The position numbers and the translations under genes were made by a program. The notes below the pieces were generated by a model, which did no database searches, had not been told where the DNA came from, and saw only the letters and a program-made list of their open reading frames with translations. A stretch of 64,000 bases of DNA from Stegostoma tigrinum (Eukaryota): positions 2,780,689-2,844,688 of the forward strand of contig NC_081369.1 in the NCBI RefSeq assembly GCF_030684315.1, in the 5' to 3' direction. Positions 491-63,561 of the stretch are shown piece after piece (within the stretch, counting starts at the first letter, position 1; each line of letters opens with the position of its first letter).

Positions 491-670
491 GATTTATTAT
501 TGTCACTTCTACGGAGGTACAGTGACAAATGTTGTTTTACATGCTTTACAAGTACATCGGAACGTACAGGTGCATCAGGGTAACAAGATGCATGTTCGTC
601 CGTCCCTTTGTTTTGCTGTTGGAATGTACTAGTAGTGTTTTAATACATATTTCCATCAATTTATTCGCTA

Positions 671-900
671 TGCCACCAACTCCACATCTGCCCGATCAGT
701 TCCTCACTCTCCTCTGCACAACAGGGGAAATTCATGTAGTTTGGTATACATCTGAGATCAACGCAACAGAAGTGTGGAAAGAGGGGAGTTTGTTTAAAGT
801 TCCCAGTGTTCTCAATCGTGTGGAGAGCGGATCGGCTTTCCGTGCTAGATTTTCCACACAACACTCAAGCCCCCAGCTAGTGTCAGTTACACGATTCAAG
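671..900 (+). pseudogene. Degenerate C1-set exon of receptor pseudogene A (paralogue of gene 1 exon 3)
   Basis: Reads PPTP-HLPDQFLTLLCTT-GEIHVVWY...KEGSLFKVPSVL, then after a frameshift C*IFHTTLKPPASVSYTIQ. This matches gene 1 C1 (PPTP..TLLCAT..EINITWY..KEGLYQISSYL..CEISHVSLYVPANDSY). The acceptor is TA instead of AG, the donor is G|at, the GFFP segment is deleted, and there is an in-frame TAG. Confidence 0.85.
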
Positions 901-2309
901 ATGAGAAATGTGAGCCTTTATTACTGTTTCTCAGACCCTAGTGTTGTGCGACATCCCGTGACCTATTTGATTCATTTTTAAAGTGTGATAGTGAAAAGCG
1001 CCACTGTCTGTAGCTTTTGCTTTCTTTTTGGCGAGGAACCTGACAACATGGCGTGATGTAAATTTGGTGGTACAACTTAGAATGCGGACTATAAATTTCG
1101 TAGCTAATCCATTTCATTCTCATGGCCTGAATTATTGACGATAGACCAGTGACATTGTGCATTTATTAGACATCACTTCATTTCACAGCATCCATGGACT
1201 TTCTACATCAAGATTTTTGCATGGCTTCTAATGACAGATGCAGAAGTGCAGGTCAAAGAATTGTTGAGAATCAAATTAAAAAAGACTTTAGTTCGATTCA
1301 GATGTGATCTAAACTCGATTTACATTTGGGAGGTTGCATAAAGTTTGCTTTGGCAATGTAATCGAAATAAACAGGGCTCATGACAGGTATGTTGGGGTAT
1401 AAAATAAGCGTGAGTAATAGAGCAGAGAAACTGCTGTCATTACGTTCAGAAAACTAAACGCCTGAAATCACTGGTATGACAGTGTAACAAAATCTAAAAT
1501 ACTGGTTGACTAATAGAGCCAAATCAATAAAACAAAATGGCTTTAATTAACCTGTCATTAGTAAGTGTCGTCTTGATTCTGTAACCCAGTCCTGGGCACT
1601 TGGTGAGAAAAATCTGAAGAATGTCCATCGGTTACTATACGTTTAAAAGAAAATTTCCAAAGTTATTGTGATTTCAGCATTTAAAATGGATAAACGTCAG
1701 AAGGTATTAATTACACAATGAAGGGGCCAGACTGTGTACATGTAGGTTTTATTTATCATCCCATTCCTTTTATTAAAGTCAATTGACTTTTTCCTGTATA
1801 GTTGTGGTTAATTTTTGAGCCACAATACAATAGTTGGCCGGTGTGCAAAAGCCTACCTAGATCCTCAAAGGAGGTGGGCTCTACCTGCTGCGTGTGTTGG
1901 TCACTGTTTTCAAAACGATCTAATTCTCAGCTGTTTCTATTATTTTTGTCTAATTACTTTTCTGTAATTTACACAGAGCTATTTAATTAAATTTAATAGA
2001 CACAATGATACTTAGAGATATGACACACAAATAAACAAACTTGCAGCAATATAGTCACATACATACTCTGAACTTGATTAACATTTGAAAATTATTCAGA
2101 ATTGATAGTCACGTTATATGTTATCATCTGTCACATTTTGTCAGGCTCAACTTTATCCCGAATAATGAATCAGGTGGAGCGTGCGTTGTACCCTCCATGA
2201 GAGACGATGTCCAAGTTATCGTCCTGGCTTTTTATGGTAAATTTGCTTTATTATTTATAACAGTCTTCTCTGCTGAATGGAAACATTCAACTTCTCCTGC
2301 ACCTTCCAG

Positions 2310-2429
2310 GCAACGGCAACCGTAACTTTCCAGACGCGTTGGTGCCTGAATGTGCAGTGGACGGGTTAATAGGTTTATTGTCTCTTGTTGCAATTCTTGT
2401 CAAGCGACGGATATCAGGCAAAACTGCAG
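2310..2429 (+). pseudogene. Transmembrane exon of pseudogene A
   Basis: Polypyrimidine acceptor cttctcctgcaccttccag|; 120 nt, phase 1-1. Reads GNGNRNFPDALVPECAVDGLIGLLSLVAILVKRRISGKTA with donor G|gcaagt. Aligns to the gene 1 TM (VAGCAVAGLLLLVLVIVVILCK). Confidence 0.75.
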
Positions 2430-2489
2430 GCAAGTTCTGATAGAACTCTGTTTAGTTGTTTTGTTTGGTCTACTCATTGTTGAAAGTTG

Positions 2490-2670
2490 TAACAGGGACT
2501 GGGTAAAATCCAGACTCAGATCTAGATATTCAGAGCAATGCAGATATCATTCAGAATGCTTGGCTTTCCTGGGTCTCAGTGCTCAAAAGCAGGCAACGCC
2601 TGAAGAGGAACCCTTAAGAATAATATGTCCATATCTCGATATTAATGTGAACCAAGGCTTTGGTCTCTAG
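2490..2670 (+). pseudogene. Possible cytoplasmic-tail exon remnant of pseudogene A
   Basis: Directly follows the TM exon and is conserved with 47523-47700 (-): ATPEEEPLRIICPYLDINVN vs ATSENEPFRTICQHLSIKVN. Splice acceptor not defined. Confidence 0.35.
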
Positions 2671-3129
2671 AATAAATGCCAATGATAATGTAGCTAGTCT
2701 AGATTAAATACCTTTAATGCTGAAACAGGGAAGGGGATCAATCGTGAATGAGAAAGTGTGAAATGTGCATTTGCAAAAGAATATATTGGACTTTAGACTA
2801 AATCGAATCCATAAGTCGAACCTGATGTTATTTTCTATTGATGTCAAATGTGGCCACTTTAATCCAATATTGGGGAGCTCTTCATGCATCAATTTCATGA
2901 TAACTTTTATTGTTGATATGAGTTTCATTCTCCAATAGGAACAGAGATTACTGAGGACGTACCAGACCAGCTGGAGCCACAGGTTAGTTTCATTCTCATC
3001 CAATCAGAACTTAAAATATGGTGCACCTTGGCACCATAATTATAGGAATTGCACTGAAATAGCAGAATTGTTTTCCGTTATGGCAGAACAATCCGTGAGT
3101 CTGGCCGAGTTAGCGTATCTTTTACTTCG

Positions 3130-17468: not shown

Positions 17469-17520
17469 ATGGGAGTGCTGAATATCCTGTGCTCTATCTC
17501 AACCCTCGGCATTTACGCAG
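17469..17520 (+). CDS. Gene 1 exon 1: leader peptide MGVLNILCSISTLGIYA
   Basis: ATG in good context (aaaATGG), hydrophobic peptide, phase-1 donor G|gtattt, 183 nt upstream of the V exon and in frame with it. Homologous leader exons occur at 51214-51268 (-) and 61461-61515 (+). Confidence 0.85.
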
Positions 17521-17703
17521 GTATTTCGACTTACAGAGGTCGAATAAATATTAAGGGGCATTGGGATTGTGTACACATTACTTCTGTTCAATGCGCGTGT
17601 TGCTTTTTTTAAACAATCTTTTTTAACCGTTATATTCTTTAACACATTGTTCACTCACTAACAGCCTTACGAATCATTGTCTGTTTGTGCTTATTTCTCA
17701 CAG

Positions 17704-18024
17704 TAGCTGATGGGAGCTCTCTCCGGATGGTTCAGTCCCCCATCCGTTTGACGGCGGTGAAAGGTACAAATGTGTCCATGAATTGCTCTTACACACTTTT
17801 CGATCCTAAAGCAATCCTGGATGTTTCCTGGTCGAGACGAAACCAGAACAGGTCATTCGAAGTGACAGCAGACAACAGGGAAGTAGTGATATATTCGAAG
17901 CCATCAGCGGCCGAGTTACACCTGCTGAATGTGGATTTTCAGGACACCGGAATCTATCAATGCAGCGCGAGAGACTGGAAACATAAAATTTCTTCTGGGA
18001 GTGGGACTGAACTTACTGTGCACG
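17704..18024 (+). CDS. Gene 1 exon 2: Ig V-set domain with germline-joined J-like motif
   Basis: Acceptor tttctcacag|, donor G|gtgagt, 321 nt, phase 1-1. Reads MVQSP..VSMNC..VSWSR..LHLLNVDFQDTGIYQC..SGSGTELTV, with B-strand Cys, C-strand Trp, DxGxYxC and GxGTxLxV. Confidence 0.95.
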
Positions 18025-19469
18025 GTGAGTGATGTAAAGGGTATTCTGCAGGTGTATTTTCAACAAGCATGTTCAACAAGAGGGGCAGCGAAATATTGCT
18101 TCTGGGTTTCGAACTGTGCTTTTCATTTTCACCGCGTTGCTGCAATCGCTGTCTTTTCGCACAGGCGCGTTGTTTAATGCCCGCAGAAATCAGCAAATAA
18201 GGTTTTAGACAATAATTAATGCCATTTCAGTATCAAGAACCGAAAGAACTGCGGATGTTGGAAATCAGACACAAAAGCAGAAAATTCAGCAGGTCTGGCA
18301 GCAAATGGGGAGAGGAATAGAAGTTATATGCTGAGACTCAGCTCCTGTTCCAGATTCTCCGGAATGCGGATTCAATTGCTCGTATTTAACCGGTCAAGCC
18401 CTTTCTGAATATTATATTTTTCAATGAGATCAGCTCTGATCGCTCCAACCTCCAAATAAAAGCGACGGAAAATACTCATCCCCTAAATACAGGACAATTC
18501 CGTAACAGCGGCGACAAACAGTTATTTTTCGTTGCTCATCCTCCCATTCAAATACAAACTCTTTTAAACATGGAGACCAAACTGACAGTTAGCATTGTCA
18601 GAGTGGTTTAACCGAAGCACTGTGAAATTGCCAAAAGGCTTATTTCTGACCTTGTAGTTCCTGTCCCCTTGCACGAAAAAATGTTCAGTTTTCCTTCTTA
18701 ATTGCCTATCTCTCCTGCATTCTGACCTTCCAAGCTTCTTGTAGGATAGTACACAAATGCCACTGAGCATCTAGACAAAGAGTTTTGCATATTTCAAAAA
18801 TATTCTGTTTAACTATTCATTTCCCAAAGTGCACAACATCATACTTTATAATTAATCCGCTAACCTCTTCCCTGTGTACAGCCTTGCTACGCATCTTGCT
18901 CACAGCTTTATTTTGTTAGTTTATTCTTTGGATGTGGACACCTATGGATATGTCAACATTTGTTGCCCACATTTATTTTTAATTTAACTGATTAACTCAT
19001 ACTGCACTTAATGGACCACCTTACTGTTGACAGGTACGATTAGTATTCTGGCTAGATTGGATAAATTAGGCAGAATTCTTCCTGAAGGAAAGCACTTGAG
19101 TCAGAATGGTTTTGACAACAATTGATGATAGTTGGCATTGACACAGTAATTGAGATTTGAATTCATTAAACATTGAAAGAATAATCAATGAAGAATTCAG
19201 TCGAAATTAGTAATAAAATAAATTTCTACCAATGCTAGGATTTGGATACACGTTCACAGGGCATTAATATGTGACTCTGGATTACTGAAAAGGTTAAATG
19301 AAGTACCCAGGGAGAGAGAAGACATGAAACCAAGGGGGAAAAAAACAGACAAAATGGAGATTAAGAAAGTGATAAGCACAGAATTCAAGTATAATAATCA
19401 ATCAGGGCCACGTTGCAAAAATAATATGAACAGATCAAATTCTTAAAGAGTCATGCCTTAAGGACTTAT

Positions 19470-20220
19470 TTCTTAATGGACATAGATTCACAATAAAGTG
19501 GATAAATGAGAAATGCACTAGATATCAAATGCATACTATATAGTTGGGATCACATGACTTGGTACAAATTGATGATGAATGCGAATTGAATATCCAGAGT
19601 GTTCAGTTTTTAGGAAGACAGATAGATAGGAAAATGAGGTTGTGTAACCTTGTTGGTTAAGGAGGGCAGTAACACAATACTGAGGCAGGATATTAGCTCA
19701 CATATTATAGAATCTATATAGATATAACTTCAAAAGACCCAGGGGCATAAAATGAGAGTGGGGTATGTTCAAAGATCACCAATGTGCTAGCATAATATTA
19801 GGGAAAGCATTTGACAGGAAATTAGAAATGCAAAAGTTATAATGGCATTTGTAATTAAGGTGGCATTAATCTGCACATAGGTTGCGTAGTGCAAGTCAAT
19901 AATAATATCATAGAGGCAAAATTCCTGGCGTGCGTATGGCATGGTTTTCTGGATCAATGCATTGTAGAACCATTGCCAATACCATCCTCAACTGGGTAAT
20001 GAAAAGGGATAATAGGTAATTTGGCAGCGCAAGATCCCTTGGGGAAGAGTGACCATGGTATAACAAAATTGCTCATTAAGTTAGACAGTGACATTGTTGA
20101 CTCTGAGACTAGCGTCCTGAAATTAAATAAAGGAAAATGTGCAGCATGCGATGGCAATGATGAATTAGGGAGTGTTAATTAAAGAGATGGTTGTGTAAAA
20201 GTGAAGAGAAGCATGTAAAA
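19470..20220 (+). mobile_element. Old CR1 endonuclease-region fragment in intron 2
   Basis: Degenerate CR1 ORF2 N-terminal sequence, e.g. gatcccttggggaagagtgaccat (PLGKSDH). Confidence 0.6.
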
Positions 20221-22752
20221 AGTGGCTTTAAGAGATGTGTTTTATCTTGGTTTCTTCCAGAGAGGTGGGGTGAACAAGTGACGAGCAGTCTTTGAGAAGA
20301 TAAACAATCTGTGAAGTCTTTGGTGCCTTTAAAAAGAAACTGGAATCGTAGAAGCAGCCTGAAAAGATTTGGTCAAGTTCCAAACCACAAAACCAGGAAT
20401 TTTTAGTTCTTAATTTACAGCAGAAATTGCTGTTCAAGTCTTGAACAAGTGGAGGCTATTTTCCCTTGTCTCGATTTCAGACTAAAGCCCAAAGTTCTGA
20501 AAACTAATAACTAAAAATCCCTGGTTCTGTGGGTGGAAACTTGACCAAACTCATTCTGTCTGCTTCTATTGTTCCATGTTTTTTTTAAAAAACACCCAAT
20601 GTTTCACAAGTTATTTATCTTTTCATAGATTGTGGCACCTGTCTCCCAAAGTCTCTCTTTAAAAGAACCCAGGACAAAGGACACTTCTTAAAGCTTCATT
20701 GTCAAATTGGTAGCAGGAAACTGGCTTATTAGAGGATGGCAACAGAAATTGCTGGAAAAACTCAACAGATCTGGCAGCATTTGGGAGACAAAGCAGAATT
20801 AAAGTTTTAGGTTCAGTGATTCTTCTGAAGAATACTCTGAAGAAGTGCCACTGGATCTGAAACATTAATTCAGCTTTGTCTCCACATATGTGGCCAGACC
20901 TGCTGACATTTTACAGAAATTTATGTTTTTGTTTCTGATTTGTTCCAGGGTCTGCAGTTCTTTGATTCTTGAATACAGGATAGGTCTGGGTCATACTGTT
21001 TTTAGATACCAGCTGTTAAAGAACATTCACAAATGAATAAAACAAGTTACCAGCATTGCACTGCCAGTGCATTGCAACACTGGAGAATTTGGGCATCCCA
21101 GAAAGGCTGAGGACAGAATTATTCAGCCTAGGACTGGGAAGTAAGGCTGATACTATTACTCTGTTTGATGAATTCTATAGACTACTAACCAGGAAACAGA
21201 AAATCAGAGAACAAATTGAAAGCATAAATTATACAGAACTGCAAGAATTATGAGTTAGTTGTAAAGAGGCTGTTTAATTTTCCAAGCACAGACCAATATA
21301 TAAACAATGCTAAATGCAAGCGTTTGTGGAGAGTTTCAATATCAGTATATTTTCAGTCCAATAGGAAAGAGTCACTGTTGGATCCAGTGCTGAGAAATAA
21401 TTTGGCTCAATGGGATACACATCTACAGGGAGATAATTCGGACAAATATCTGTTATATTTGAAGATTTACATTGGCTCTGGGAATGTAAAAAACAAATTA
21501 CAAGTAAAAGTAAAGTTTCTTTTTATTTCATTTGTGTGATGTTGGGTGTTGCTGGCTGGCCAACATTTGTTGCCCATTCCTAGTTGCTGTTGAGAAGGTT
21601 GGAGTTGGAGAACAGCCAAATGCTGTACGAACCTAATGGGTCTGGGCAAGATAATTGGCATTGAACGTGGCCAGGCAAAACTGCAAATGAACAAGAAATG
21701 ACTTTTAAAAATGTAGAATTGTGTTTTATTATCACATGCACTCAAGGGATACAGGAGTGCAGTGAAAAGTTTACAATTCATGGTGCCATCTTGGGTACAA
21801 GGTACCTTGGTACAAAATCTTACATAAAGAGTAGAAAAATAAAGTTAAAAGTTCAACACCACTGTTCTTGTCAGTATAAAGTACTAAATAAGAAACAAAG
21901 TGAAAAGGTTCAAACTGCAGTCCTTCTCGAGCCATGGGCCTGCATAGGTTTTTACCATGAGCGCTCAGTATTTTTCACACACTTGGTTCAATCTTTCTCC
22001 CTGTGCTTGATCTCTCTCTGACACTGGGCTCAATCTGTCGATCCCCGAGCCTCAAGGCTGCCATCTCGTCATCGACCGCCTTTCACTGTCTCCTGCACTG
22101 GATGCAATCTCTTTACTTCTCAATTCCTGTGCTCCATAAACATACTTCAGGTAGAGTGAAGTTGCATTCCACAAATAGGTAAGGAAAAATAAAAGCTGGA
22201 ATTTCTTGCATAAAGGAAACCATAGAGGGTAATTTGAAGCTGAAAGGGTGTGACAATGCAATTGAGAATCCACCTGATTAGAAGAATCTCAGATATCAGA
22301 AATTTAAAAAAATCTGAGAAGCAAATAGAAAGTATCAGCAGAGGATAGCAGGTAACAGAGAAAATAATCCAAACAGGTTGTATGGGTACGTGAATTGGAA
22401 AATTCAGATAAAATGATGTTTGAAATTGCATAGAGGCTGAAAAGGGAAGACAGGCACAAAGACATTTTGAAAGTCAGAGGAGTTAATTGGATACATTGTA
22501 TCAGACTTTAATGACAAAGAAGATTCAGTCCAATTTGCAATTCCAGAGCAGAGAGTTTGGAAAATTGATTTAGAATTGCAGGAAAACAGATACCAGAACT
22601 GTTGGTTGTGTTTAAAATTAATAAATGTCCAAAAACAAATGAGGAGCTGTGTCACAACACCTAATTGTGAAACTTTGTAGATGACATTCTTTACTTTTGT
22701 AGTATAACATGTGAGGAACAATTTTAACAAGTTTCCATTAATTAAATCCCAG

Positions 22753-23028
22753 TGCCACCAACTCCTGTGAAGATTACTCATCAGTCCCATTCCACACTGC
22801 TCTGTGCAACAGCTGGCTTCTTTCCAAAGGAGATTAACATCACGTGGTATGAAAATTATACAGAAATTACAACTGAGTTCAACACAACTATAGAAAGGAA
22901 CAAAGAAGGATTATATCAAATTTCCAGTTACCTCAGCCCTGTGCAGAATGCAGTGATGTACACCTGTGAAATTTCTCATGTTTCTCTCTACGTGCCAGCC
23001 AATGACAGCTACATGTTTCTTGATCAGG
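22753..23028 (+). CDS. Gene 1 exon 3: Ig C1-set domain
   Basis: Acceptor tcccag|, donor G|gtaaga, 276 nt, phase 1-1. TLLCATAGFFPKEINITWY and YTCEISH are C1-set signatures (CxxxxF-F/Y-P..W and YxCxxxH). Confidence 0.95.
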
Positions 23029-23519
23029 GTAAGATTCTCAGCTTGACAATAATCATTTGAATGGGATGTGTGCTTGATATAGAGGACTGTCTTGTTTTAC
23101 TGGCCTGTAGCATATCATTCTTAATGAACTGAGTTTGAAAGACGCCACTGTGTTCATTGCAGTGCAAAGTACAATTCAGGTGGTACAGGACAATGTGGCA
23201 CTTTTGAGCTTCAGTTGAGTGTGGCTATCAAGCATATTGTCTGCTATGAATAGAGAATATTTCACTCTAATGTGAAGAAGGTTGTTCCCAAGTCCTGTGG
23301 TGATTTGTGGAGGTTTGATAGGAATTTTGGTGATTGGAAATTGAGTGCAGATCTCGAGGTTACAAAATACGTGTGTGCATAGAGAATGAGTCATCAGGTA
23401 ATGTACATGAACCCAAAAAACTGAAAGGTATTTTGTCAGAAAATCTAAACTGCAGCTTACTCTGGTGAAGTTTTAGTCAAAGTAGAGCTTAAATAAGCAA
23501 CATAGAGATAAATTAATCA

Positions 23520-23780
23520 AGAAGTGCAGAGAGCCACAGGGATCAGTGCTGGGGCTTCTGCTGTTCGTGACCTATGTAAATGATTTGGAGGAAAACATAG
23601 CTGATGTTATTAGTAGGCTTACAGATAAGACAATGATTGGTGGAGTTATGGATCGTGAGGAGGATTGTCAGAGGATACAGCAGGACACACATCAGTTGTA
23701 GGCATAATCAGAAAAATGGCAGATGGAGTTTAATCTGGTCAAATGTGAAACGATACATTTTGCAAGGTCAAGTTCATATG
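23520..23780 (+). mobile_element. CR1 RT fragment
   Basis: ccacagggatcagtgctgggg (PQGSVLG) and tggcagatggagtttaat (WQMEFN). Confidence 0.8.
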
Positions 23781-23784
23781 ATAA

Positions 23785-25690
23785 GATGTTAGGGCAGAAT
23801 TAACCCATTGAAGTCTCCTCTGCCATTTGATAATGGTTGATATGCTCCTTACTCCTATCTTCCTGTCTCCTTCCCATAGTCCTTCAACCCATCACCAATT
23901 AAGGACCTGTCTCACACCTCATTAAATTTACTCATTGTCCCAACATCCACTGCATTTTGGGGTTAAGAATTCCACGGATTCACAACCCTTTGGGAGAAGT
24001 AGTTCCTGCTCAATTCCATTTTAAATTTGCTACCCCTTATCCTAACACTGTGCCCTCTCATTCTAGAATGCCCCACAACAGGAAGCATCCACTCCATGTC
24101 CATTTTACCTATACCTTTTATCATTTTGAATACCTCAATTTGATCTCGCCACATTCTTCTAAATTCCAGAGAGTATAGGCCTGAACTGTTCAATCTTTCT
24201 TCATACAACAAACTCCTCACTCTGGAATCAATCTAGTGAACTTGCTCTGACCTGCCTCCAATGCTACTTCATCTTTCCTCAACTAAGGGGACCAAAATAG
24301 TGCACAATACTCCAGATGCAGTCTCACCAATACCTTGCACAGTTGCAAAAATACTTCCTTACTTTTATATTCTATTCCTTTAGCTATAAATGCCAAGATT
24401 CCATTCACTTTCCTTATTATCTGTTGTACTTTCATGCTAGTTTTCTGTGACACATAAACGAGGACTCCCAAATCCCTCTGCACCAGTGCATCTCAAAGTC
24501 CCTCCCCATTTAGATAATCATAGAATCAGAGAAACATAGACACACTACAGCGTGGAAACAGGCCATTCAGCCCAACAAGTCCACGCTGCCTCTCTCAACA
24601 GCATCTCACACAAACCCATTCCCCTACCCCTGCATTTCCTATGTCTAGCCTACCTAACCTAAACATCCCTAGGCACTATGGGCAATTTAGCATGGCCAAT
24701 CCACCTAACCTGCACATCTTTGGATTGTGGGAGGAAGCCGGAGCACTTGGAGAAACCCACGCAAGTATGGGGAGAATATGCAAACTTCACACAGGCAGTC
24801 GCCGAGGCTGGAATTGAACTCAGGTCACTGGTGCTGTGAGGCTGTAGTGTTAACCACTGAGCCACCATGCCGCCCAAAACAATAATACATTGCCTTCCCA
24901 TTTTTCTGACCAAAATACATGACCTCACACTTATCCATGTTAAATGCCATTTGCCACATTTTGGCCCACTCTCCGAATGTAAATATTTCAATTTTTAGGG
25001 TTCTTATTTCCTCATTGCTATTTACCGTTCCCCTGTACTTTTGTGCTGTCTGTAAATTTGGCTATAGAGCCTTCTATCCCTGTATCCCAGTTGTGAATGG
25101 AGATTGTAAATAGCTAAAGCCCAAAGGTTAAACCCTGTGGCAGCCCACTAATTACTTTTTGCCATCAAGAATAAAACCCATTTATCCCTACTCTCTGTCT
25201 TCTGTCCATCAGCCAGTCACCTATCCGAGCTAATAAATTTACCCCTAATCCCAAATGATCCAACCTTGTGAATTAACCTTTTGTGCGGCACCTTATCAAA
25301 AGCCTTCCAGAAGTCCAGATATACTAATATACAGGTTCCTCATTGTCCACTTTGCTTGTTCCATCTTTGAAGAACTCTAGCAAATTAGTCAAACATTATT
25401 TGCCCTTCCTAAAACCATGCTAAATCTGATAGATAACACTTTGACTTTCCAAATGTCCTGATATTGCTTCCTTGATATTGATTCTAACTTAGCCAGCAAC
25501 AGATGTTGAACTAACTATTCTGTAATTTCCCACATACTGCCTCCCTCACGCTTTGAATAGGGTGTTACATTAGCATTTTTCCAATCTACTGGAACCTTTC
25601 CTGTGTCCAGCGAATTTTGGAATATTGTAACCAATAGATTCACGATGTCCACTGATTCTTCCTTTAATACTCTACAATGTAGGCCATCAG
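23785..25690 (-). mobile_element. CR1 LINE (RT to 3' end), interrupted by a SINE
   Basis: QRDLGVLV, LVRLHLEYCALFWSP and FSQRVVNPWNS on the - strand. Confidence 0.9.
24520..24875 (-). mobile_element. HE1-type V-SINE nested in CR1
   Basis: rc begins gggcggcatggtggctcagtggttaacact (A box), followed by B-box-like agttcaattcc and V-domain ccacaatccaaagatgtgcaggttaggtggattggccatgctaaattgccc. Confidence 0.9.
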
Positions 25691-25699
25691 GCAGATTAA

Positions 25700-28320
25700 G
25701 TAAAAAACATTAGTTCTGTAACTAGAGAAGGTATTTCTGAAAAATTGTCCAATGAAAAATATGGGTTGAAATTGGAAATAAAAAGGGAATAATCAACTTG
25801 ATGGATTGTACTATAGACCTCCCAATAGTCAGAGGGAAATCACGGAACAAATATGTAGAGATACCTCGGGCATATGGAAAAATAATGAGGTTGTAATAGT
25901 AGGTGATTTTAATTTTCCAAATATTTACTGGGCCTCCCACAGTGCTAAAGGTTTGGATGGTGAAGAATTTATTACGTGTTGTCAAGAACGTTTTTTTTCA
26001 ATATGTAAATATTCTCACCAGAGAGGGAGCAAAACTAAATCTTCTCTTGGGTAATAAGACAGTTCAAGTGACTAAGTGACATTTGGGCAACATTTTGTGT
26101 CTAGTGATCATAGTTCTATTTGTTTAAAATAATCATAGAAAAAGGTAAGTCTTCTATAAAAACTAAAAGTTTTTATTTGGTGTAAGGCAAATTTTAATGG
26201 TATGAGAAAAGAACCCTCAAAATTGCTTGGAGTAGATTTCTTCCAGACAAGGGACAACTGATAAGTGGGAGGTTTTCCAAAATATCATGCGAGTTCAGAG
26301 TCATTGTATTGCTGTTAGAGTGAAAGCTAAAGCTGGTGGGATTAAGGAGCTATGGATGAACAAAGGTGTTGAAGTTCTAGTCAAAAATAAAAAATAATCA
26401 TTTATTAGGTATAAACAACTGGGTTCAAATGAATGTTTTGAACAGTTCAAAGAGTTGTAGGTGCAATTTTAACAAGGAGATCAGGAAGGTGAAGAAAGGA
26501 CATGAGTTAGCCTCAGCAAATAAGGCTAAGGATAATCCAAAGAGATTCTACAAGTACTTTACGAGAAAAAGAACAACTGCAGAGAGTGTAGGGCCTCTTA
26601 AAGATCAAAGAAATTGTCTTTATGTTTAACTTCAGAAGATGGGAGAAATATTAAATGAATATTTTGCATTAGTTTTTACTGCGGAGAAAGAAATGGAGGC
26701 TAGTGAACTCGAGGAAATAAAGACTGATGTTTTTAAAACAGTTCACTGACAGAATAAGAAGTATTAAAAATAAAAACAGGTGGATTAATCTCCGAGACAT
26801 GATCAAGCTTATCCCGGGACTTTGTGGGAAGTTAGGGAGGAAATTGCGGGAGCCTTCTCAGAAATATTTGTGTCATCTATGAATTCGAGTGGGTTCCAAA
26901 AGCCTGGACTATAGTTCACGTTGTATGTTTATCCAAGAAGGGATGTATGAAGAAGTTTGGGAACTATAGACCTGTGAGTCTAACTTCGGTGGAAAGTTGT
27001 TGGAAGTGATTCTGAATTATAGGATTTATACAAATTTTGCAGAGGCAAGGAATGATTAGGGATAGTCAGCATGCTTTTGTGGTGGACAAAGTGTCTCACA
27101 AACATAGTTGAGCTTTTTGAGGAAGTAATTGAGAAAATTGACGAGGGCAGATGGATAGACATTGTTTACTTGGACTTTAGTAAAGTCTTTGACAAGATTC
27201 CATATGTTAGACTAATCAGTAAAGTTAGATCACATGGATTCAAAGTGAACGTGCCAATTAGACAGAAAATTGCCTTAATAGCAGAAGATAGAGGGTGATG
27301 GTGGAGGATTGATTTTTGGACTGCAGGTCTGTTACCAGTAGTGTTCCACTGGGATCAGTGCTTCTGTTTGTTGTTTATATAAATTATTTAGATGAGAATA
27401 TCCAAAGCTTGGTGAGTAAATTGGCAGACGACACCAAGATTGGTAGTATACGGGATAGTGAGGAAGGTTACCTGAGGTTACAAAGAGATTTTGATCAGTT
27501 CAGTGAATGGGCTGATGAGTGGTAAATAGAAATAAATTTGGATAAATTGTAGGTATTACATTTCAGTAAAACAAACAAAGAGAAAACTGACACAATTAAA
27601 AGTAGGGCTCTGCACAGTGTTGTAGAACAGAAAGACCTAAGGATTCTGGCACATAACGCTGAAGTTTGCATCACATATAGAACCGGTGGTTTCGAAGGCA
27701 TTTTGTGCGCTTGCCTTTGTTGCTCAGACCATTGAGTATACGAGCTGGGACATTATATTTACATTGTACAGGATGTCACTGAGGTCTCTTTTGTGTCCAG
27801 TTCTGGTCTCCCTGTTATACGAAGGATATTATTAAACTGGAGAGTGTTCAGAAGGGATTTGCCACGATGTTGCCAAGAATGGAGAGTTTGAGTGATAAGG
27901 AGAGGCCAGATAGGCTGGCACATTTTTCACTGCAGTGTAGGAGGTTGAGAGGTGACTTTACAGAGGTTCATAAAATAATAAGGAGTATAAGTCAGCTGAA
28001 TAGCAAGCGTATTTCCCCTAGGCGGGGGTATTTCATTTCAAGAGAGGGGCTATAGTTTTAAGGTCGCAGGAGGGAGATTTTAAAAAGACATTAGGAACAA
28101 CTTTTTTTACACTGTGAGCAGTGTGTGGATTGAACTTCCTGAGGAAGTGGTGGATATGGGTACAGTTACAACGTTTAGAAGACATTTAGTTAATTACATG
28201 AACAACAAATGTTTGGAGGGGAATCAACCAAGTGCATGCAGGTGGAACTAGTTTGGAATTATGGTTGGCGTGGACTGCATGGACCGAAGGGCCTGTTTCC
28301 ATTTTGCATGAAGCTATAAC
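25700..28320 (+). mobile_element. Degenerate CR1 LINE (endonuclease-RT-3' end)
   Basis: YYRPPNS, VIVGDFNFPNI, YLDFSKVFDKIP and LADDTKIG. Confidence 0.92.
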
Positions 28321-29197
28321 CCTTTCGTAGTTGGTGTTCAATTTCATATATTTCCATCCACCCCAATGCCCTGTGTTAAAATGCTCAATGATTTTCATTT
28401 TGAATTATTCTGGCTGACCTGTAGTTACTGGACAGAAACCTCCGCACGTTGTAACCTCAGATTAATTATTAGGCAGCAACCTGCAGTGACAAGGAACAGA
28501 ATTGAAACCCATGTCATTCACACAATGACACCTGCCAACTTTCAGGGCCTTTGTGATGCATTCAATGCCGCTCACTATAATTTCACAGCCTGTGATTAAA
28601 TTCCATGTAATTTAGTGTCCACAGTAGGCAAACAGTCTTTCTGGTTGATTTAATGTTCTGCACAGAGGTACGAGAACAGGGAGCAGCATCTTACAGATAG
28701 AGAAAACCAGCAGGCATATGTGCACTTTCATGCTTCGAACAAAAAGAAAAAGACAGGGGAGACAATCTCACAGTGGCAATCTGAAAGGGTTCAGGGCCCA
28801 CTTTGACAGCTTTCAGAATTTAATGATCATGGATTTAAGAGGTATCTAATTGAAGTCTACATTCAGTAATGGTTATCACAAATCTCTTATTGATTGCCAT
28901 AAAATGGATATGATTCACAAATGCCCTTAAGAGAAGGAAATCAATCATCCTTCTCTGGTCTGGCCTACCAGGCCAACAGCAAGTGAATGACTCTGATCTG
29001 TTTCCAAGAGATACTGGAAATATGCAGCAATTGCTTAGTGTCCAATGATATCATCAACCCATGAGCAACTGAAATTAGAAGAAATCTGCATGTTTGAAAT
29101 ATGGCAACTAACAGAATTAAATGTTCATATTAACACAAATAGATCATTTTTGTGTTCTTAATTTCTTATTGGACTTTATTCATGCTTCTGCAATAAT

Positions 29198-29515
29198 TAG
29201 ATTAGATTCCCTACAGTGTGGAAACAGGCCCTTTGTCCCAACAAGTCCACACCGTCCCTTGCAGCATCCCACCCAGACCCATCCCCCTATAACCCACAAA
29301 CACCCCTGAACACTATGGGCAATTTAGCATGGCCAATCCACGTAGCCTGTACATCTTTGGACTGTGAGAGTAAACCGCAGCACCCGGAGAAAACCCACGC
29401 AGACACGGGGAGAATGTGCAATCTCTGCACAGGCAGTTACCTGAGGCTGGAATTGAACCCGGGTCCCTGGCGCTGTGAGGCTGCAGTGCTAACCACTGAG
29501 CCACCGTGTCACCCT
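29198..29515 (-). mobile_element. Full-length HE1-type V-SINE just upstream of the TM exon
   Basis: rc gggtgacacggtggctcagtggttagcactgcagcctcacagcgccagggacccgggttcaattcc...; the tail is (tagat)n on +. Confidence 0.92.
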
Positions 29516-29656
29516 AATGTTGCAAATTGGAAGGAAAGATAGAACTGCTGAATAGTCCCTGAGAGATGATTGCTTTAACATGTGTGTTACTTTTTGTCTG
29601 ACATTGGCTTCTTCTCTTTAACTGCTAACATTTGACTTGTTCTCCCCTTTCTTTAG

Positions 29657-29764
29657 CTACCAGTGACAGTATTTTGCAAAAAGTGGCTGGATGTGCTGTA
29701 GCAGGATTACTACTTCTAGTGTTGGTAATTGTTGTGATACTTTGCAAACTTAATACAATTAAAG
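29657..29764 (+). CDS. Gene 1 exon 4: stalk plus uncharged transmembrane helix
   Basis: Strong acceptor tctcccctttctttag|, donor G|gtaaga, 108 nt, phase 1-1. Reads ATSDSILQKVAGCAVAGLLLLVLVIVVILCKLNTIK. Too short for the ORF track. Confidence 0.9.
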
Positions 29765-30222
29765 GTAAGACTTGTCACAAACTATGTTCAGAATTGGTTT
29801 TGATTATTTAGTTACAACTCAATGCTGCGGTGTCAGGAAGATTGATTAGTCATGTCTGGGGCATAGGTTTCCATGCACTCCAGCTTTGGGATCTTCTTCC
29901 CTCTGAAATCCAGTAGTCTAATAATAGAAGGGGCTAAAACCCAACCTACCCCTCATGCTAATTTTTCTATTCTTGAAAATTAAGATGAACCATATTTCAT
30001 GCTTAATGGAAGGCAGTTATCAAAGTTCAGTGAATTGAAATCAGCTAATTCTGAATTATAAAACAAACTTATTCTCATTCTATAATAAAAGGGAATGCCA
30101 CTGTGTTAATTGTGATGTGATTGGCCATGTTACTTGATCACAGCATAACTTTAGACTGACATGATGCCAAATGGTGTTTATAAATGAAATTGATCATTGA
30201 TAAAAATGTTGTTCTCTAATAG

Positions 30223-30275
30223 GCACCAAGGTCACTTCAGTTAATTCCAAAGATAACAGCCAGTTCGAAGAACAG
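30223..30275 (+). CDS. Gene 1 exon 5: juxtamembrane cytoplasmic exon GTKVTSVNSKDNSQFEEQ
   Basis: Acceptor gttctctaatag|, donor CAG|gtttgt, 53 nt. Converts phase 1 to phase 0, as needed to join exons 4 and 6 in frame. Confidence 0.75.
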
Positions 30276-31010
30276 GTTTGTTTCTTGATCATGTTTGTTA
30301 TTTGAGAAATAGAAAGTTGTTACAGCATACAACACACATACATCATTATTTCCTGAACTGCTGTGACATCAGAGCACCTCATGCCAAGCTCATCCATTCC
30401 TAATGATGCATTTGCCCTAAATACATGGTTAATGATCACTCAATTCTGCGATGACACCCATACATAACTAAACCACCAGTTTCTGCAAACTATTTACATT
30501 GTGTCACTGTAGATTGGATAGTTATTCAAGTGTACAAAGTGGCATATCCTCACTCAAAATATAACAGAAAATGTTGGCATATTCAGCAGAACAGGCCAAA
30601 GCTGTGAAGAGAAACATCTAAAGTACCTGGTGTAAGACATTTGATCATTTTCCATTAATTCTGTTATCCGCTTGTATTGCCCACATGAAATTCTATATGA
30701 CATGCACGGATTGAAAGGGTGCTGTCATTATTCAAGTCCAGCCATAGTCTTTCTGTTCCATTGAATTCTAAAAACCGGGCATTTGTTTTGTTGTTCATCA
30801 TTCCATTTCTATGTCTCAGGCAAGTCAATTGTGAATGCATATTCACAGAAATGCTTATTCTCAATTTGTATGTATTGACAAGTGGTTTGAAAATTGCCTG
30901 CAGGACACATATGCCTGGAAGCACACTTTTCACTGTTGGGTGATAAGGTTTTAAGTGCAGGTAAATGGCATCTGGGTGACGAATTGCTCAAGTGAAAGCA
31001 ATTCTGATGC

Positions 31011-31148
31011 AAGATAACAAAGTGTGAAGCTGGATGAACAAAGCAGGCCAAGCAGCATCTCAGGAGCTGCTTGGCCTGCTGTGTTCATCCAGCTTCACAC
31101 TTTGTTATCTTGGATTCTCCAGCATCTGCAGTTCCCATTATCACTGAT
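31011..31148. mobile_element. Short Penelope-derived insertion with a fold-back inverted repeat and 15-bp TSD
   Basis: ~46-bp inverted arms with one mismatch. Direct repeat gcaattctgatgcaa at 30998-31012 and 31149-31163. Confidence 0.75.
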
Positions 31149-31371
31149 GCAATTCTGATGCAATTTTGGTTTACTACACTCAGGCAGGAGCTTGTTCTTA
31201 TCTTCCACGATCATAGAATTTGACTGAATCAAACAATAACAGTATAACCACAAGATCAATGCTGTTATCCTTTAAGCCTGATTTATCTCATGTATACTGT
31301 TAGCAATTTTTGATGCTGCACTGTACTTATAATTAAGACTCAGATGGTATTTCTATAATATTTATCTTCAG

Positions 31372-31482
31372 AGAATACAACAAGGAGAGATGAAGTTTCC
31401 ATCTTATGCTCTTCTAAACTTCAGAGAATACAAGAGAAGTAGAAAGCACAGAAATAAGGAAGACCAAACTTTGTATGCAATG
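31372..31482 (+). CDS. Gene 1 exon 6: cytoplasmic exon with ITIM-like YALLNF and ITSM TLYAM(I/V)
   Basis: Acceptor tttatcttcag|, 111 nt, phase 0-0. Reads RIQQGEMKFPSYALLNFREYKRSRKHRNKEDQTLYAM, donor |gtacga. Confidence 0.8.
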
Positions 31483-31622
31483 GTACGACTGTAAAACCAA
31501 ACAATGTTTTCTAACTAAGGCTGCTCCAACACAAGTGCCTATTCCCATTGATGTACATTGAATACCTACAAAAGTTAATTTGACAAACAGCTGCCCTTGA
31601 TATTTCCTTGTTACTTTTACAG

Positions 31623-31715
31623 ATTAAAGAAGAGACAGAAGTAAATCCGACTTACGAGTCTCTGGATATGACCAATTTGCCAAAACAACAACAAGGAAAT
31701 AGACTGAAAACGTGA
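31623..31715 (+). CDS. Gene 1 exon 7: terminal coding exon IKEETEVNPTYESLDMTNLPKQQQGNRLKT*
   Basis: Strong acceptor ttccttgttacttttacag|, phase 0, third Tyr motif (NPTYESL), TGA at 31713-31715. Total CDS is 1014 nt = 337 aa plus stop. Confidence 0.7.
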   Translation: MKEETEVNPTYESLDMTNLPKQQQGNRLKT

Positions 31716-34975: not shown

Positions 34976-35140
34976 CTGTGTTGCTGGAGCTGCCTGGGCC
35001 CACTGAGGCTGTGTTGCTGGTGCTAACTGGGGGCCCGTGATGCTCTGTTGCTGGATCTGCCTGGGCCCACTGAGGCTGTGCTGCTAGAGCTGCCTGGGCC
35101 TACTGAGGATGTGCTGTTTGTGCTCCCTGGGCCTGCTGCC
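34976..35140. repeat. GC-rich minisatellite, 33-bp unit x ~5
   Basis: Unit ctgtgttgctggagctgcctgggcccactgagg. Confidence 0.85.
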
Positions 35141-46245: not shown

Positions 46246-47770
46246 GGGAATGCTGATAGGATCATTTGAAGAATGTTGAGAGCATTTTCTTAAAGAACAT
46301 AATGCTGTCAGGGATGACTCAAGTTGATTGAACTGCCATGCACTGCTCTTACTGTATAAATATGCTATATTTTATAATGCTGCAGAACTGACCCAATTAA
46401 CCAGCCTCATCTACTCTTAACTGAACAAACAAACGCACCTCACATTTCAGTGGACCAACTTTAAAACTTTGATGAATACTGTATTGCGTTGTGTCTTTTG
46501 AATAAATGTTGATTTCAAAGTGCTTATGACTAACCAACAATGTACAGATAGTTTCCATAAGTCATGAGCCATTTGTGACCAGTTCATTGCTGGACATTAG
46601 ACTTTGGATTCTTCATTTGGTTTGTTTAGCTTGATCTTTGCATATTCCATTCCCATTTTCTTACTGTTGCTTTTCTCACTTTTCACGCTCAAGTGTCAGT
46701 TTAATGTCACCACTTTGTTTAGTCTGAGGGAGTAACAATAAAAGATCAGTTGCACCTTACCTTCAAATGATTTGTTCCATTTTGTCAATATACATCTTTG
46801 AGATTAGACACTTGTACCTGGGCCCTCCTGGATGACAGACTCATACCAAGGCATAGATGGAGGGCTCTTCTACATGCCTGGATTTTGGAGTTTTCCTGTG
46901 CTTACCAAAACTGAGAGCTGCATTGGAAGGACTATTCACTTCTCTTCCATTCCTTGCCCGATGACAGATTTTTGAGAATTTTTTTTTGTGCACCACATGG
47001 AAAAAACACCATGCAGTACACAAGAGCCAATTCAGTCAGTCCTCACAAAGACAGATGAATAGAGCAGGGTAGATAGTAACTTTAACTCAGAAATACTCAT
47101 GGTCTGTTCTGTCATGAGCAAAAATAGTACTGCTAACTCAGAGAGTCATTGTAATTATGGTACCAATATACAGCATATTTCAATTTCTGTTTGGTGGGAA
47201 TGGAACTAACTTGCCCCTTCAACTGACCTGGTATGTCTTCGAAAATCTCTGTTCCTGTTGGAGAATGAAACTAATGCGAACAATAAAAGCAATCATGGTC
47301 ATGAGACATGACAAGCTCACCAAAAGTTACATAATATTGGAACAAAGTGACCAGATTCAAAATCAGTTGAAAATAACATTGAGTTTTACTTATGGATTCG
47401 ATATGGTCTTAGGTTCAATATATTCTTTTGCAATGCACATTTCACACTTTCTCACCCGGATTTGCCTGCTGCCTTGTTGCAGGATTAAAGATATTTAATT
47501 TACAGCATTCACACCATCCCCTTCAGTTTTTGCAGAGAGCAAAGGCATGGTTCACCTTAATACTGAGATGTTGACAAATTGTTCTGAAGGGCTCATTTTC
47601 GGACGTTGCCCATTTTGAATACTGAGACCCAGGAGGCCAACTGTTTTTACAAGTATCTGCATTGCTCTGAATATCTAGATCTAAGGCTGGACTGTACGCG
47701 TTCTCTGCTACAACATGCAACAATGAGTGGACCAAACAAAACAATTGAACACGATTGTATCAGTATTTAC

Positions 47771-47883
47771 CGACAGTTTTGCCTGAAGTGCATTGCTTGA
47801 TGAGAATTACAGCAATTAGAGTTATTAAACTGTCCACAACACATCTAGACACCAAGATGAGAAAAAGTTGTTTTCACTGCTGC
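47771..47883 (-). pseudogene. Frameshifted TM exon of pseudogene B
   Basis: Acceptor ctgctag|, donor G|gtaaat, 113 nt (not a multiple of 3). Reads GSSENNF/fs/ILVSRCVVDSLITLIAVILIKQCTSGKTV. Confidence 0.75.
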
Positions 47884-49295
47884 CTAGCAGATCCGGTAAA
47901 AGTAGTATGTTTGCGTCTTGCATAAGTGATTAAGCAAAATCACAATAAAAAGTCAGGACAAAAACTAGGACATGCTTTCTTATGGAGGGTGCAATGCGCA
48001 CTTCATGATATCTTTCAACGTGATGCATAATCGGGTAAATTTTCTACTGAAAAACTGTGACTGATAATAAGTCACACATGCATTATCAGTTCTGAATAAG
48101 TTTAAACTGTTAATCAATTTCATAGTACATATCTGATTATATTGCGACTGGGCTTGATGTGTATTTGTGTGCAATATCCCCAAGTATCATCATGCAGTGC
48201 AACTTCTATGAAATGTAATTGAATGGCTTTGCGCAAATTACAGAAAAGTAATTAAACAGAAATACAATAAAGAGTGGAGAAATTAGATCATTTTGAAAAC
48301 AGTGACCATCAGGCAGAGCAGGCAGGTCTCCGCTTCCTTTTAGGATCTAGGTAGTCTTTTGCACAGAGGCCGACAACCCTAAAGTGGTACAAAAATTCAT
48401 AAATAAAACTATGCAGGAGAAAATCGATTGACTTTAATGAATGGAATTGGATAGTTAAAAAAATAAGCTACACGTACACAGTCTGGCACCTTCATTGTGT
48501 AATTCACATCTCCTGGAGTTCATCCATTTCAAATGTTGAAATCACAACAATTATGGAGTTTCTTACCTGTGAATGTTCTTACGACGTTTTCTCACCAAGA
48601 TACCAATCTGGGTTACAGTGCCGAGAAGGGCACTTACCAATAATGGAGGAGTAGGGCCTTTTTTTTAATAGATTTGACCATGCAATCACCAGTATTCAAA
48701 CTGCTGTCACAGTCCCACGATTGTAGATGTTTAATTTTCTGCATGCAATCACATCAGTTTTTCTTACTGTTAGTTAGCTCATTCAGTTTATACCCCAACA
48801 CACCAGTCGATCCCTATCATTAGCCCTGTTTACTTCAATCACACTGCCAAAGTAAACCTTATGCAACCTCTCAACTGTGAATCGCATCAAAATCGAACTA
48901 AAACCTTGATCACTTTGTTCCGCAACAATTCTTAGACCTGCACAGATTCATGCTTCATAAGGATTCATGCAAAAATCTCAATGTAGAAAGTCCATAGAAG
49001 CTGTGAAATGAAGTGAGATTGATGGCGGCAATAGATCCAAATTATCGCTGTTCTTCACGGTAACTCATGACATGAGAATGAAATCGTTTTGCTACGAAAT
49101 TTATAGTCTGCGTTCTACGTCACATCATTAAATTTGCAGAGTGATATTATGTCACGTCCTGAGCCAAAAAATCAAAAGTTATGAAAGACAAGTCGCGCTT
49201 TTCAGTATCATTATTTAAAATTGCCCTTATAGGCCACAGGACACCACACCAAAATAGGAACCGGGAAACAGTTTTAAAAGTTCACATTTTTTTAC

Positions 49296-49567
49296 CCTGA
49301 ATCGTGTAACTGACACGAGCCGGGAGCTTGAATGCTGTGTGGAAAATCTGACAGGCGTAAACCGATCCTGCTCTCCACATGATCGAGAAAGCTGGAAACT
49401 ATAACATTCGCCCCTCTTTCCATGCTTGCGTCAATTTCAGATGTAAACAGGATAACATTAATATACCAAATTAGATGAATTTCCCCTGAGAAAAAATGGA
49501 GCCGTTGTGCTGAGGAAAGTGACGGGCCGAACGGACAGATGACTAATCTTCACTGAAGTTGGTGGCA
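49296..49567 (-). pseudogene. Degenerate C1-set exon of pseudogene B
   Basis: ag|VPPTSVKISHLSVRPVTFLSTTAPFF/fs/SGEIHLIWYIN..IVSSFLDHVES/fs/GSVYACQIFHTAFKLPARVSYTIQG|gtaaaa. The first Cys is changed to Ser and there are two frameshifts. The N-terminus is near-identical to gene 1 VPPTPVKITH. Confidence 0.88.
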
Positions 49568-49739
49568 CTTTGAACACATTGATTGAAATATGTGTTAAAA
49601 CGCTATTAGTACATTACAAAAGCAAAATAAATAGCGAGTATCTTCGAGGAATAGAGATGAGATAACAATAAGAGTATTTCTTTCGTTTGGAAACACCAGT
49701 AAGCAAAATAAATTCACCAAGACGCCTGAGACAGCAGCT

Positions 49740-56840: not shown

Positions 56841-57282
56841 TGTGGGCAGTGACCGCAGTACCCTCCAGAAGTCCAAGGTCCAGCCCCTCCATCTGTCCCT
56901 TCATGACCATTGCCCGGGTTAACTGCTGGACGCTCTCCGGGCTCAGGAAGCCATCCGTGCTGCCTTCCGGGTGGCATCCCCCTGTCGGGGGTGCGGAGGC
57001 AGGAGGGTCCGGCTCTGGGTCAGGCTGGGGACGCGCTGTTTCCACCTTCCCGCCTGGAAGTTCCAGGGTGCCCTCCAGTGCCCCAGCGGCACTTGACCGG
57101 GTGTCGGAGGGAGCCTCAGGACACCTCCCGTCACCTGGAAGTGTGGTGCTGCTTTCCTTCTCCCTCGAGATCTTTAACTTCTGCTTCAGGCAGGACCTCT
57201 CCGAATTCCCCTCGTCAGAGGAGCTCTTATAGCCCCCCTGTAGCTGCCTCTTCCCACCTGATGGTTGCGGTTCCTGGGCCCA

Positions 57283-63255: not shown

Positions 63256-63561
63256 CTTCACCAGCTCCCCTAAACATTGTATTGATACGTTCCGAAGATC
63301 CTTCATCTGCTTCTTTCAAGCTGCAATGCAGAACATCTGGCTTTTATCCGGAATACTTTAACCTGACTTGGCACAGAAACGGGGCACAAATCTTCACTGG
63401 ATTTAGAAATGAAAAACAGGCAAAAGGCGAGGGACTTTATGAAGTGGTCAGCTCTTTGGACATACCAAATATACCGGAAAGTGACACAGTCTACATGTGT
63501 CATGTGTATCACGTTTCAAGCGCATTTCCAGCAAATGCCAGCTGCACTGTGACGAAAGACG
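63256..63561 (+). CDS. Gene 2 exon 3: Ig C1-set domain (gene continues beyond window)
   Basis: Acceptor aatacag|, 306 nt, phase 1-1. Reads LQCRTSGFYPEYFNLTWHRNG..EGLYEVVSSL..YMCHVYH..PANAS. The donor G|gtaagattct is identical to that of gene 1 exon 3. Confidence 0.95.

Follow-up and report, generated by a model that had tools for sequence, protein, structure and literature searches.

The V-type exon with a J-like G strand at 17704-18024 belongs to a predicted gene, here called gene A. Gene A quite probably encodes a germline, non-rearranging type I receptor of a chondrichthyan tandem cluster and would work like the inhibitory paired receptors of the SIRP and NITR type. It is a non-rearranging receptor gene of the joined-VJ type and neither a TCR nor an Ig chain, and its TCR likeness is one of layout only. 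A direct relic of the antigen-receptor ancestor is a less likely reading of gene A than a member of an inhibitory paired-receptor family, which is most likely what it is.

Gene A and its surroundings

The window, that is, the whole stretch of DNA analyzed, comprises 64,000 nucleotides of Stegostoma tigrinum contig NC_081369.1. Gene A was predicted as seven exons at 17469-31715, with GT-AG at all sites and an open frame of 337 amino acids that encodes, in order, a split leader, a V domain, a C1 domain, a transmembrane segment, and a tail of about 91 residues with three tyrosine motifs. Its Hemiscyllium ocellatum ortholog, P0163, was 68% identical to it over 325 amino acids with only two gap positions, and the two grouped together in a quick V tree (SH-aLRT 99). 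A search for sequencing runs containing the stretch listed none labeled as RNA and four of unstated type, all from one study. The features of gene A and of the other family sequences in the window are as follows.

17469..17520, plus strand: gene A exon 1, ATG and most of the hydrophobic leader, the final leader residues being in the V exon (GT donor, phase 1; aligns with the P0163 N terminus)
17704..18024, plus strand: gene A exon 2, V-type Ig domain, short, its G strand J-like and germline-encoded (Pfam V-set, E 7e-13; AG/GT, phase 1-1; model pLDDT 88)
17964..17993, plus strand: gene A FG (CDR3-equivalent) loop, 10 residues, of nearly fixed length across the family
17994..18020, plus strand: gene A J-like motif S-G-S-G-T-E-L-T-V, with Ser at the site of Phe/Trp in a real J (family counts; DSSP strand break at G-S-G)
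22753..23028, plus strand: gene A exon 3, single C1-set domain (Pfam C1-set, E 1.2e-14; AG/GT, phase 1-1)
29657..29764, plus strand: gene A exon 4, short stalk without cysteine and uncharged transmembrane segment with an outer-leaflet Cys
30223..30275, plus strand: gene A exon 5, cytoplasmic (matched by P0163)
31372..31482, plus strand: gene A exon 6, cytoplasmic, first Tyr motif (noncanonical ITIM) and most of an ITSM-type TxYxxI (67% match to P0163)
31623..31715, plus strand: gene A exon 7, stop codon and third Tyr motif, which is degenerate but is a canonical ITIM in P0163
61821..62132, plus strand: V exon of paralog gene B, diglycine motif lost (V-set, E 2e-8; 49% identity to the first V of P0162)
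63256..63561, plus strand: C1 exon of paralog gene B, the remainder of which lies beyond the window (C1-set, E 1.8e-9; 64% identity to P0162)
670..2991, plus strand: family pseudogene remnant 1, with a degenerate C1 (about 670-909), a transmembrane-like piece (2303-2431), and a tail piece (2932-2991) (tblastn with P0153)
46600..49577, minus strand: family pseudogene remnant 2, with a frameshifted C1 (49577-49277) and tail pieces (46960-46850 and 46683-46600)

Remnant 2 is an inverted, 71% identical copy of window positions 607-3112. With two family genes and two remnants, the window has the appearance of a birth-and-death cluster, and the examined remainder consisted of repeats and LINE fragments. 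An ORF at 526-981 was considered as a V exon and rejected, as it had no Pfam hit and corresponds to a degenerate C1.

The repeats included a broken non-LTR retrotransposon on the minus strand at 53691-58410, which we take to be L1/Tx1-like. Its ORF1 has two ZCCHC3-type RNA-binding domains and CCHC knuckles, its ORF2 (endonuclease, RT, and zf-RVT) is split, and its GC content is about 56 to 61%, versus about 40% in the surroundings. Just upstream of its ORF1, at 58444 on the minus strand, a perfect RSS heptamer occurs with a 23-base spacer and a 2-mismatch nonamer; the window has 13 such loose RSS-like matches, this one included, and it probably arose by chance. A minisatellite with a 35-base unit (23.7 copies, 84% matches) was found at 37253-38078, and a 33-base array of 4.9 copies was found at 34971-35133.

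The V exon and its J-like motif

The first-pass annotation had read the V exon as a germline-joined VJ unit without recombination signals, and its observations on the exon itself were reproduced. YQC-SARDWKHKIS-SGSGTELTV is present in one frame of a single exon (17704-18024) ending in a phase-1 donor, with the F-strand Tyr (17955-17957) and Cys (17961-17963) in a frame that is open throughout. The loop between the second Cys and S-G-S-G has 10 residues and is CDR3-equivalent, in line with the CDR3 length claimed. The absence of a valid RSS was borne out as well: in 17640-18100, on both strands, none of 20 heptamer candidates starting with CAC was paired, at a spacer of 12±1 or 23±1, with a nonamer having fewer than 4 mismatches. 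A 1-mismatch heptamer at 18021-18027 overlaps the splice donor and is located after the J-like stretch, not before it. The F-strand-plus-GxG pattern occurred once in the window and three times in total across 200 base-shuffled windows.

The description of the exon end as being like a J segment needs two qualifications. The GxG-T-E-L-T-V and the phase-1 donor are there, but the residue before GxG is Ser instead of the Phe or Trp of a real J, and phase 1 is not specific to J segments because the leader, C1, and transmembrane exons of gene A end in phase 1 too. The J consensus is given as FGxGTx(L/V)xV (PMC11599192).

The predicted structure of the gene A V domain (pLDDT 88) has both A and A' strands. 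Structure prediction had been proposed earlier as a check of a G-strand β-bulge. DSSP assigned strands at residues 95-97 and 101-105 with a break exactly at G-S-G (block pLDDT 89-98), which fits a bulge at the level of DSSP assignment, hydrogen bonds being outside the check. No strand of at least 3 residues was assigned between C and D, and the C'/C'' strands are thus reduced in the model. They are likewise reduced in VNAR.

A chondrichthyan family with a fixed, non-rearranging motif

An exhaustive search with the gene A V exon gave 186 matches. Among the 150 listed, the best single-domain matches were shark and ray proteins automatically named tapasin-related, SIRPα-like, NCR3LG1-like, or uncharacterized; B7-H6-like is a further automatic name within the family. 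A word-index search for longer relatives with the V exon alone found none among 220 candidates and was too insensitive, since the exhaustive search did find them. With a full-length relative as the query, all 32 matches came from sharks, rays, or Callorhinchus. A 26-sequence profile gave 64 matches, the top 54 at 138 bits or more and the next at 91, and a chondrichthyan name was visible on 53 of those 54. Judging from contigs of equal length, the members within a species apparently lie on one long contig (9 records in Heterodontus and 8 in Heptranchias), a few small scaffolds excepted. Our literature search, which covered mostly openly accessible papers, found no description of this family.

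For residue counts, a profile built from 36 members was applied with a cutoff of 80 bits, giving 92 V domains (next score, 70), which collapsed at 90% identity to 67 nonredundant domains with a mean pairwise identity of 38%. Two partial members scored under the cutoff, and the coherence of the set is partly circular because the profile was built from the family's own members. IMGT positions on these domains are our own assignments, mapped from remembered hallmarks. GxG was kept in 60 of the 67 domains, and Phe or Trp preceded it in none. Instead, Asn stood before GxG in 53, forming an N-x-S/T glycan sequon in 40; gene A has Ser, without a sequon, at this position (118), which speaks against the paired-receptor explanation proposed below. 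The FG loop had 10 residues in 53 domains, 8 in 11, and 9 in 3, its length being nearly fixed from chimaera to sharks. The V domain is short, with a Cys-Cys spacing of 59 in 50 of the 67. Gln44 was found in only 6. Tyr at position 103 is part of the Ig/TCR dimer face, and its presence in 45 of the 67 domains counts against the paired-receptor explanation. Taken together, these counts indicate that the J-like stretch is long established and fixed in the domain and does not represent a junction that was captured.

Gene A was also compared with the known classes of VJ-bearing genes. Rearranging Ig and TCR genes have V and J apart, flanked by 12/23 RSSs, while gene A has a single exon and no RSS pair. 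Germline-joined shark IgL and TCR genes carry (F/W)-G-x-G-T-x-(L/V)-x-V, from which gene A departs by its Ser and all 67 family domains by lacking F/W. What gene A does share with the joined-VJ members of the Ig superfamily is a V domain that does not rearrange and has GxG in its G strand.

A quick V tree was made from 66 family and 26 other V domains, with no Ig or TCR sequences among them and with family domains shorter than 90 amino acids and P0214 excluded. All 66 family domains fell on one side of a branch with SH-aLRT 94, opposite the 26 others.

Three further groups of sequences were noted. P0191, P0192, P0200, P0180, P0186, P0190, and P0196 form a subfamily that is conserved from chimaera to rays and has a loop of 8 residues, a transmembrane segment starting WWIY-C, and basic, mostly Tyr-free, Cys-bearing tails; judging from these tails, this subfamily may be ligand-like rather than signaling. 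In the models P0006, P0015, P0017, and P0053, the V domain runs straight into the transmembrane segment with the C1 exon skipped, suggesting splice forms that lack C1. Proteins of turtles and lizards in which tandem V domains end in GxG-T (P0002, P0013, P0050, P0128, and similar ones), some with a transmembrane Arg and some with Tyr tails, had the V domains next closest to the family (up to 70 bits) and are possibly another paired family.

Similarity scores favor no named family

Fold matches of the gene A V model were tied among an NCAM I-set domain, CD79b, VNAR, TCR V, IgL V, and NKp30 (Z 13-15, TM score 0.7-0.8, identity 14 to 28%). NKp30 ranked 10th in the Foldseek list, no SIRP chain was among the fold matches listed, and identity to any Ig, TCR, or VNAR V in these matches was 16 to 28%. 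A search of the ESM Atlas gave generic V-set clusters only, and multidomain I-set chains dominated the PDB matches of a V-only profile. By bit score, the V exon of gene A reached about 25 against VNAR and about 25 against TCR alpha; its C1 reached 38 against MHC II beta, 30 against SIRPα domain 3, and 17 to 19 against each UrIg2 C domain. For the V-C1 stretch of P0163, the scores were 47 bits with TAPBPR, 45 with an Ig light chain, and 32 with the V-C1 stretch of SIRPα; the best 60 matches listed included no TCR. With the family profile, a lambda light-chain V-C stretch scored 68 bits and UrIg2 scored 56. Domain by domain, gene A scored no better against TCR than against VNAR, CD79b, NCAM, MHC II, or TAPBPR. 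No named family stands out by score.

Membrane anchor and cytoplasmic tails

The earlier description of gene A as VJ, a single C1, and a transmembrane segment was confirmed but incomplete, since three further exons encode a tail with tyrosine motifs. No second C1 was found between V and transmembrane segment, either in the exon model or by tblastn. TCR chains are marked by a stalk cysteine, a basic transmembrane residue, and a very short tail. Gene A has none of the three, and its only cysteines are at residues 8, 45, 104, 142, 196, 229, and 246.

Of the tyrosine motifs of gene A, the middle one has the ITSM form TxYxxI and the outer two are noncanonical, whereas their equivalents in P0163 are two canonical ITIMs. 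Past the third Tyr motif, at 31623-31780, the frame of gene A differs from that of the Hemiscyllium ortholog, and the ortholog-like frame there carries a stop as well; the difference is either a lineage-specific truncation or a homopolymer error.

Among 71 family proteins screened, a transmembrane segment was predicted in 44. The other 27 had none, many of the RefSeq-type models being isoforms, partial, or fused. Long tails with at least two Tyr motifs were found in 21 of the 44, and 20 of these 21 had a canonical ITIM. Four combined a short tail with a transmembrane Arg, and the remaining 19 belonged to neither class; in one subgroup among them, the tails are basic and mostly devoid of Tyr. 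The two tail classes occur on similar ectodomains: a Heptranchias pair, one member with ITIM and the other with Arg, was 86% identical over 228 ectodomain residues, and in Chiloscyllium an Arg member was 80% identical to a partial sibling of the uncharged transmembrane type. The family thus shows what defines paired receptors, namely, clustered genes with similar ectodomains that end either in ITIM tails or in short tails with a charged transmembrane residue. By a rough pattern, a cysteine was also present near the outer end of the transmembrane segment in 28 of the 44 (in gene A, the segment of 29657-29764); this Cys could form disulfide-linked dimers without V-V pairing.

DISCUSSION

A probable germline paired receptor that would bind without V-V pairing

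We propose that the cluster of cartilaginous fishes evolves by gene birth and death and that its members would bind a cell-surface or pathogen ligand with the single V domain alone, in which GxG would be an ordinary V-fold bulge. In most members, an N-glycan would occupy the site where the J phenylalanine packs on the partner V. Ligand binding would lead to phosphorylation of the tail and to recruitment of SHP-1/SHP-2, or of a SAP-type adaptor at TxYxxI, which would damp the leukocyte, while the short-tailed siblings with a transmembrane arginine would activate through an adaptor of the FcRγ/CD3ζ type. The phosphatase and adaptor steps are taken by analogy from established receptor biology. 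Gene A would be an inhibitory-type member with worn ITIMs; inhibition by gene A itself is less certain because it is the sole one of the 21 long-tailed members without a canonical ITIM.

This wear raises another reading, in which gene A is a decaying or noninhibitory paralog within the family, for example, a decoy or an ITSM-only co-receptor. Both flanking ITIMs are noncanonical in gene A while P0163 has two canonical ones, the end of the tail is in another frame than in the ortholog, and two pseudogene remnants lie nearby. However, gene A retains seven exons, intact splice sites, an open frame, and all three tyrosines, and we consider decay unlikely.

Relation to SIRP, NITR, and other joined-VJ receptors

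Gene A and SIRP both have a germline V in which S-G-x-G-T-E-L-x-V stands without F/W (Ser precedes GxG in human SIRPα, too), and the family shares with SIRP a C1-set membrane-proximal domain and clustered inhibitory (SIRPα) and activating (SIRPβ) genes (PMC9652883). The family might be the fish counterpart, by orthology, of the SIRP cluster of tetrapods; its members would then be self-recognition receptors that have a single C1 in place of two and possibly bind CD47. SIRPα ranked second and SIRPγ seventh among the PDB matches of P0163, with the G-strand S-G-x-G-T-E-L-x-V aligned; they ranked second and third with the C1 exon of gene A. Many RefSeq names in the family read SIRPα-like. The origin of SIRP is stated to be unknown in one source (PMC9652883) and is placed in tetrapods in another (PMC13262535). 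However, the SIRP ranks arise from summing two C1 matches. Stretch by stretch, SIRPα (32 bits with P0163) falls behind TAPBPR and the Ig light chain, and with C1 alone it falls behind MHC II beta, so that per-domain SIRP scores are no higher than those of TAPBPR, IgL, or MHC II. The family also differs in its shorter V and its Arg-type activating members, and its CD47 ligand is putative. SIRPβ has a transmembrane Lys. The SIRP ectodomain is V-C1-C1 (PMC2785349), while gene A has one C1 exon, and SIRPβ uses DAP12 (PMC12975943), while the activating members of the family use Arg. The supplement text searched for the elephant shark (PMC3964593) makes no mention of SIRP. Membership of the family in SIRP is unproven, and orthology seems doubtful. 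SIRP-like cDNAs were reportedly once found in skate.

The paired-receptor organization that we favor has its other parallel in the NITRs of ray-finned fish, which are likewise a clustered multigene family of activating and inhibitory receptors with a V-J-like unit in a single exon (bioRxiv 2021.06.11.448072; PMC7916673). NITRs differ in that their V is combined with an I domain and that FGxGTxLxV is often nearly perfect in them, whereas the family has V plus C1 and never F/W; the second domain of gene A is C1-set. A lack of NITR homologs in cartilaginous fish is cited in one of these two sources.

The elasmobranch UrIg and UrIg2 genes resemble gene A in their single-exon VJ, split leader, C1 domains, and lack of rearrangement, but they are single loci encoding 3 to 11 C1 domains and disulfide-linked dimers, are expressed in liver and gill, and are linked to the MHC or the Ig/TCR complex (PMC12227049). 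The family, by comparison, has many paralogs and a signaling tail, and where UrIg/UrIg2 have VJ followed by at least three C1 domains, gene A has a single one.

PRARP and the tetrapod VJ-C1 genes, as well as NKp30 (NCR3), are also non-rearranging joined-VJ genes (PMC10751288; PMC11599192). A turtle V-C1 protein with F-G-S-G, P0207, scored 102 with the family profile, against 198 for the coelacanth protein P0106, and turtle proteins of this type and frog NCR3 fell outside the family in the V tree. We presume P0207 to be a PRARP, a label given by guess. NKp30 has a transmembrane arginine and is not known to have a C1.

Antigen-receptor origin

With its non-rearranging V exon and G-strand diglycine, followed by one C1 and a transmembrane segment, gene A does belong among the joined-VJ relatives, as the first-pass annotation had stated; the set is given as CD79, NITR, SIRP, CD8, NKp30, PRARP, and CTLA4 (PMC11599192). 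The annotation went on to argue that the TCR-like ectodomain layout gives the family a special bearing on the origin of antigen receptors, and this we could not sustain. Gene A does share with TCR and Ig light chains the V-C1(-TM) order, the diglycine G strand, and the split leader. It differs from them in having no RSS, F/W118 (absent in 67 of 67 domains), Gln44, stalk Cys, or basic transmembrane residue and in having a short V and a long tyrosine tail of 91 residues; the domain scores do not favor TCR. Moreover, UrIg2, a shark gene linked to the Ig/TCR locus, has already been published as the lead candidate on the basis of synteny and structure (PMC12227049). Relatives of the RAG-split gene are being actively looked for among single-exon VJ genes (PMC12227049), and arguments from V-C1 layout to antigen-receptor origin have been made for SIRPα, where the direction of descent is said not to be tellable (PMC2785349), and for NITRs too (bioRxiv 2021.06.11.448072).

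The family could still be a surviving close relative of the VJ-C1 gene split by the RAG transposon, comparable to UrIg/UrIg2, NKp30, and PRARP. It has a single-exon V with GxG-T-x-L-x-V, a split leader, one C1, and a transmembrane segment, it is present in chimaera, sharks, and rays, and its profile gives the lambda V-C stretch and UrIg2 the scores listed above. VJ-C1 genes are treated as possible remnants of this kind (PMC10751288). A similar protein exists in the coelacanth: P0106 (Latimeria chalumnae XP_064425669) is a V-C1-TM protein with an N-G-T-G G strand, the 10-residue family loop, and a transmembrane lysine. It matched the family profile by hhalign with a score of 198 and a probability of 99.8, and its best PDB matches are Ig light chains. 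P0106 is a possible bony-vertebrate relative of the family, although its V is full length (Cys-Cys 71) and lies outside the family in the V tree. Against such a relation, F/W118 is present in none of the 67 family domains and Gln44 in only 6, the V is short (Cys-Cys 59 in 50), GxG is lost in paralog B, and GxG is widespread in nonreceptor V domains such as that of CTLA4 (PMC11599192). The domain scores do not single out Ig/TCR, and the window shows no linked MHC or Ig/TCR genes, its ORF and similarity scans having given only family genes and repeats. We regard this relic reading as quite improbable.

That the family descends instead from a shark IgL or TCR cluster joined secondarily by germ-cell RAG, with the transmembrane segment and tail gained later, is very improbable: germline-joined clusters do exist in cartilaginous fish, where all lambda genes are joined (PMC4279169), and the family profile has Ig light chains among its best V-C matches, but identity to Ig, TCR, or VNAR V in the fold matches is only 16 to 28%, F/W-GxG is absent from all 67 domains, the loop keeps almost the same length from chimaera to sharks, and none of the 150 matches listed of the 186 from the profile-free search has both WYxQ and FGxG. 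Recent germline joining is unlikely because of this last result and the low identities to Ig/TCR; a very old origin from an IgL-like unit is less so, in view of the lambda V-C score of the family profile and of P0106.

Implications

The broadest picture that can be drawn is of an undescribed chondrichthyan cluster, with a coelacanth remnant, that comprises tens of paired VJ-C1 receptors that do not rearrange. They would descend from the same VJ-C1 unit as Ig light and TCR chains but with V-V pairing blocked by an N-glycan replacing the J phenylalanine. Such a cluster would be the missing NK/myeloid self-recognition system of sharks and possibly the source of tetrapod SIRPs. We give this extended scenario a low probability. 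By itself, the J-like motif is ordinary and no surprise, being shared by several known families; the notable part is the family, with its one C1, short V, activating partners of the Arg type, and putative glycan replacing the J phenylalanine. The family, whose members go by at least six automatic names that do not agree, adds an extra branch to the VJ-C1 phylogeny, and this chondrichthyan-wide V-C1 paired-receptor cluster is a testable candidate for the innate self/non-self receptors of sharks.
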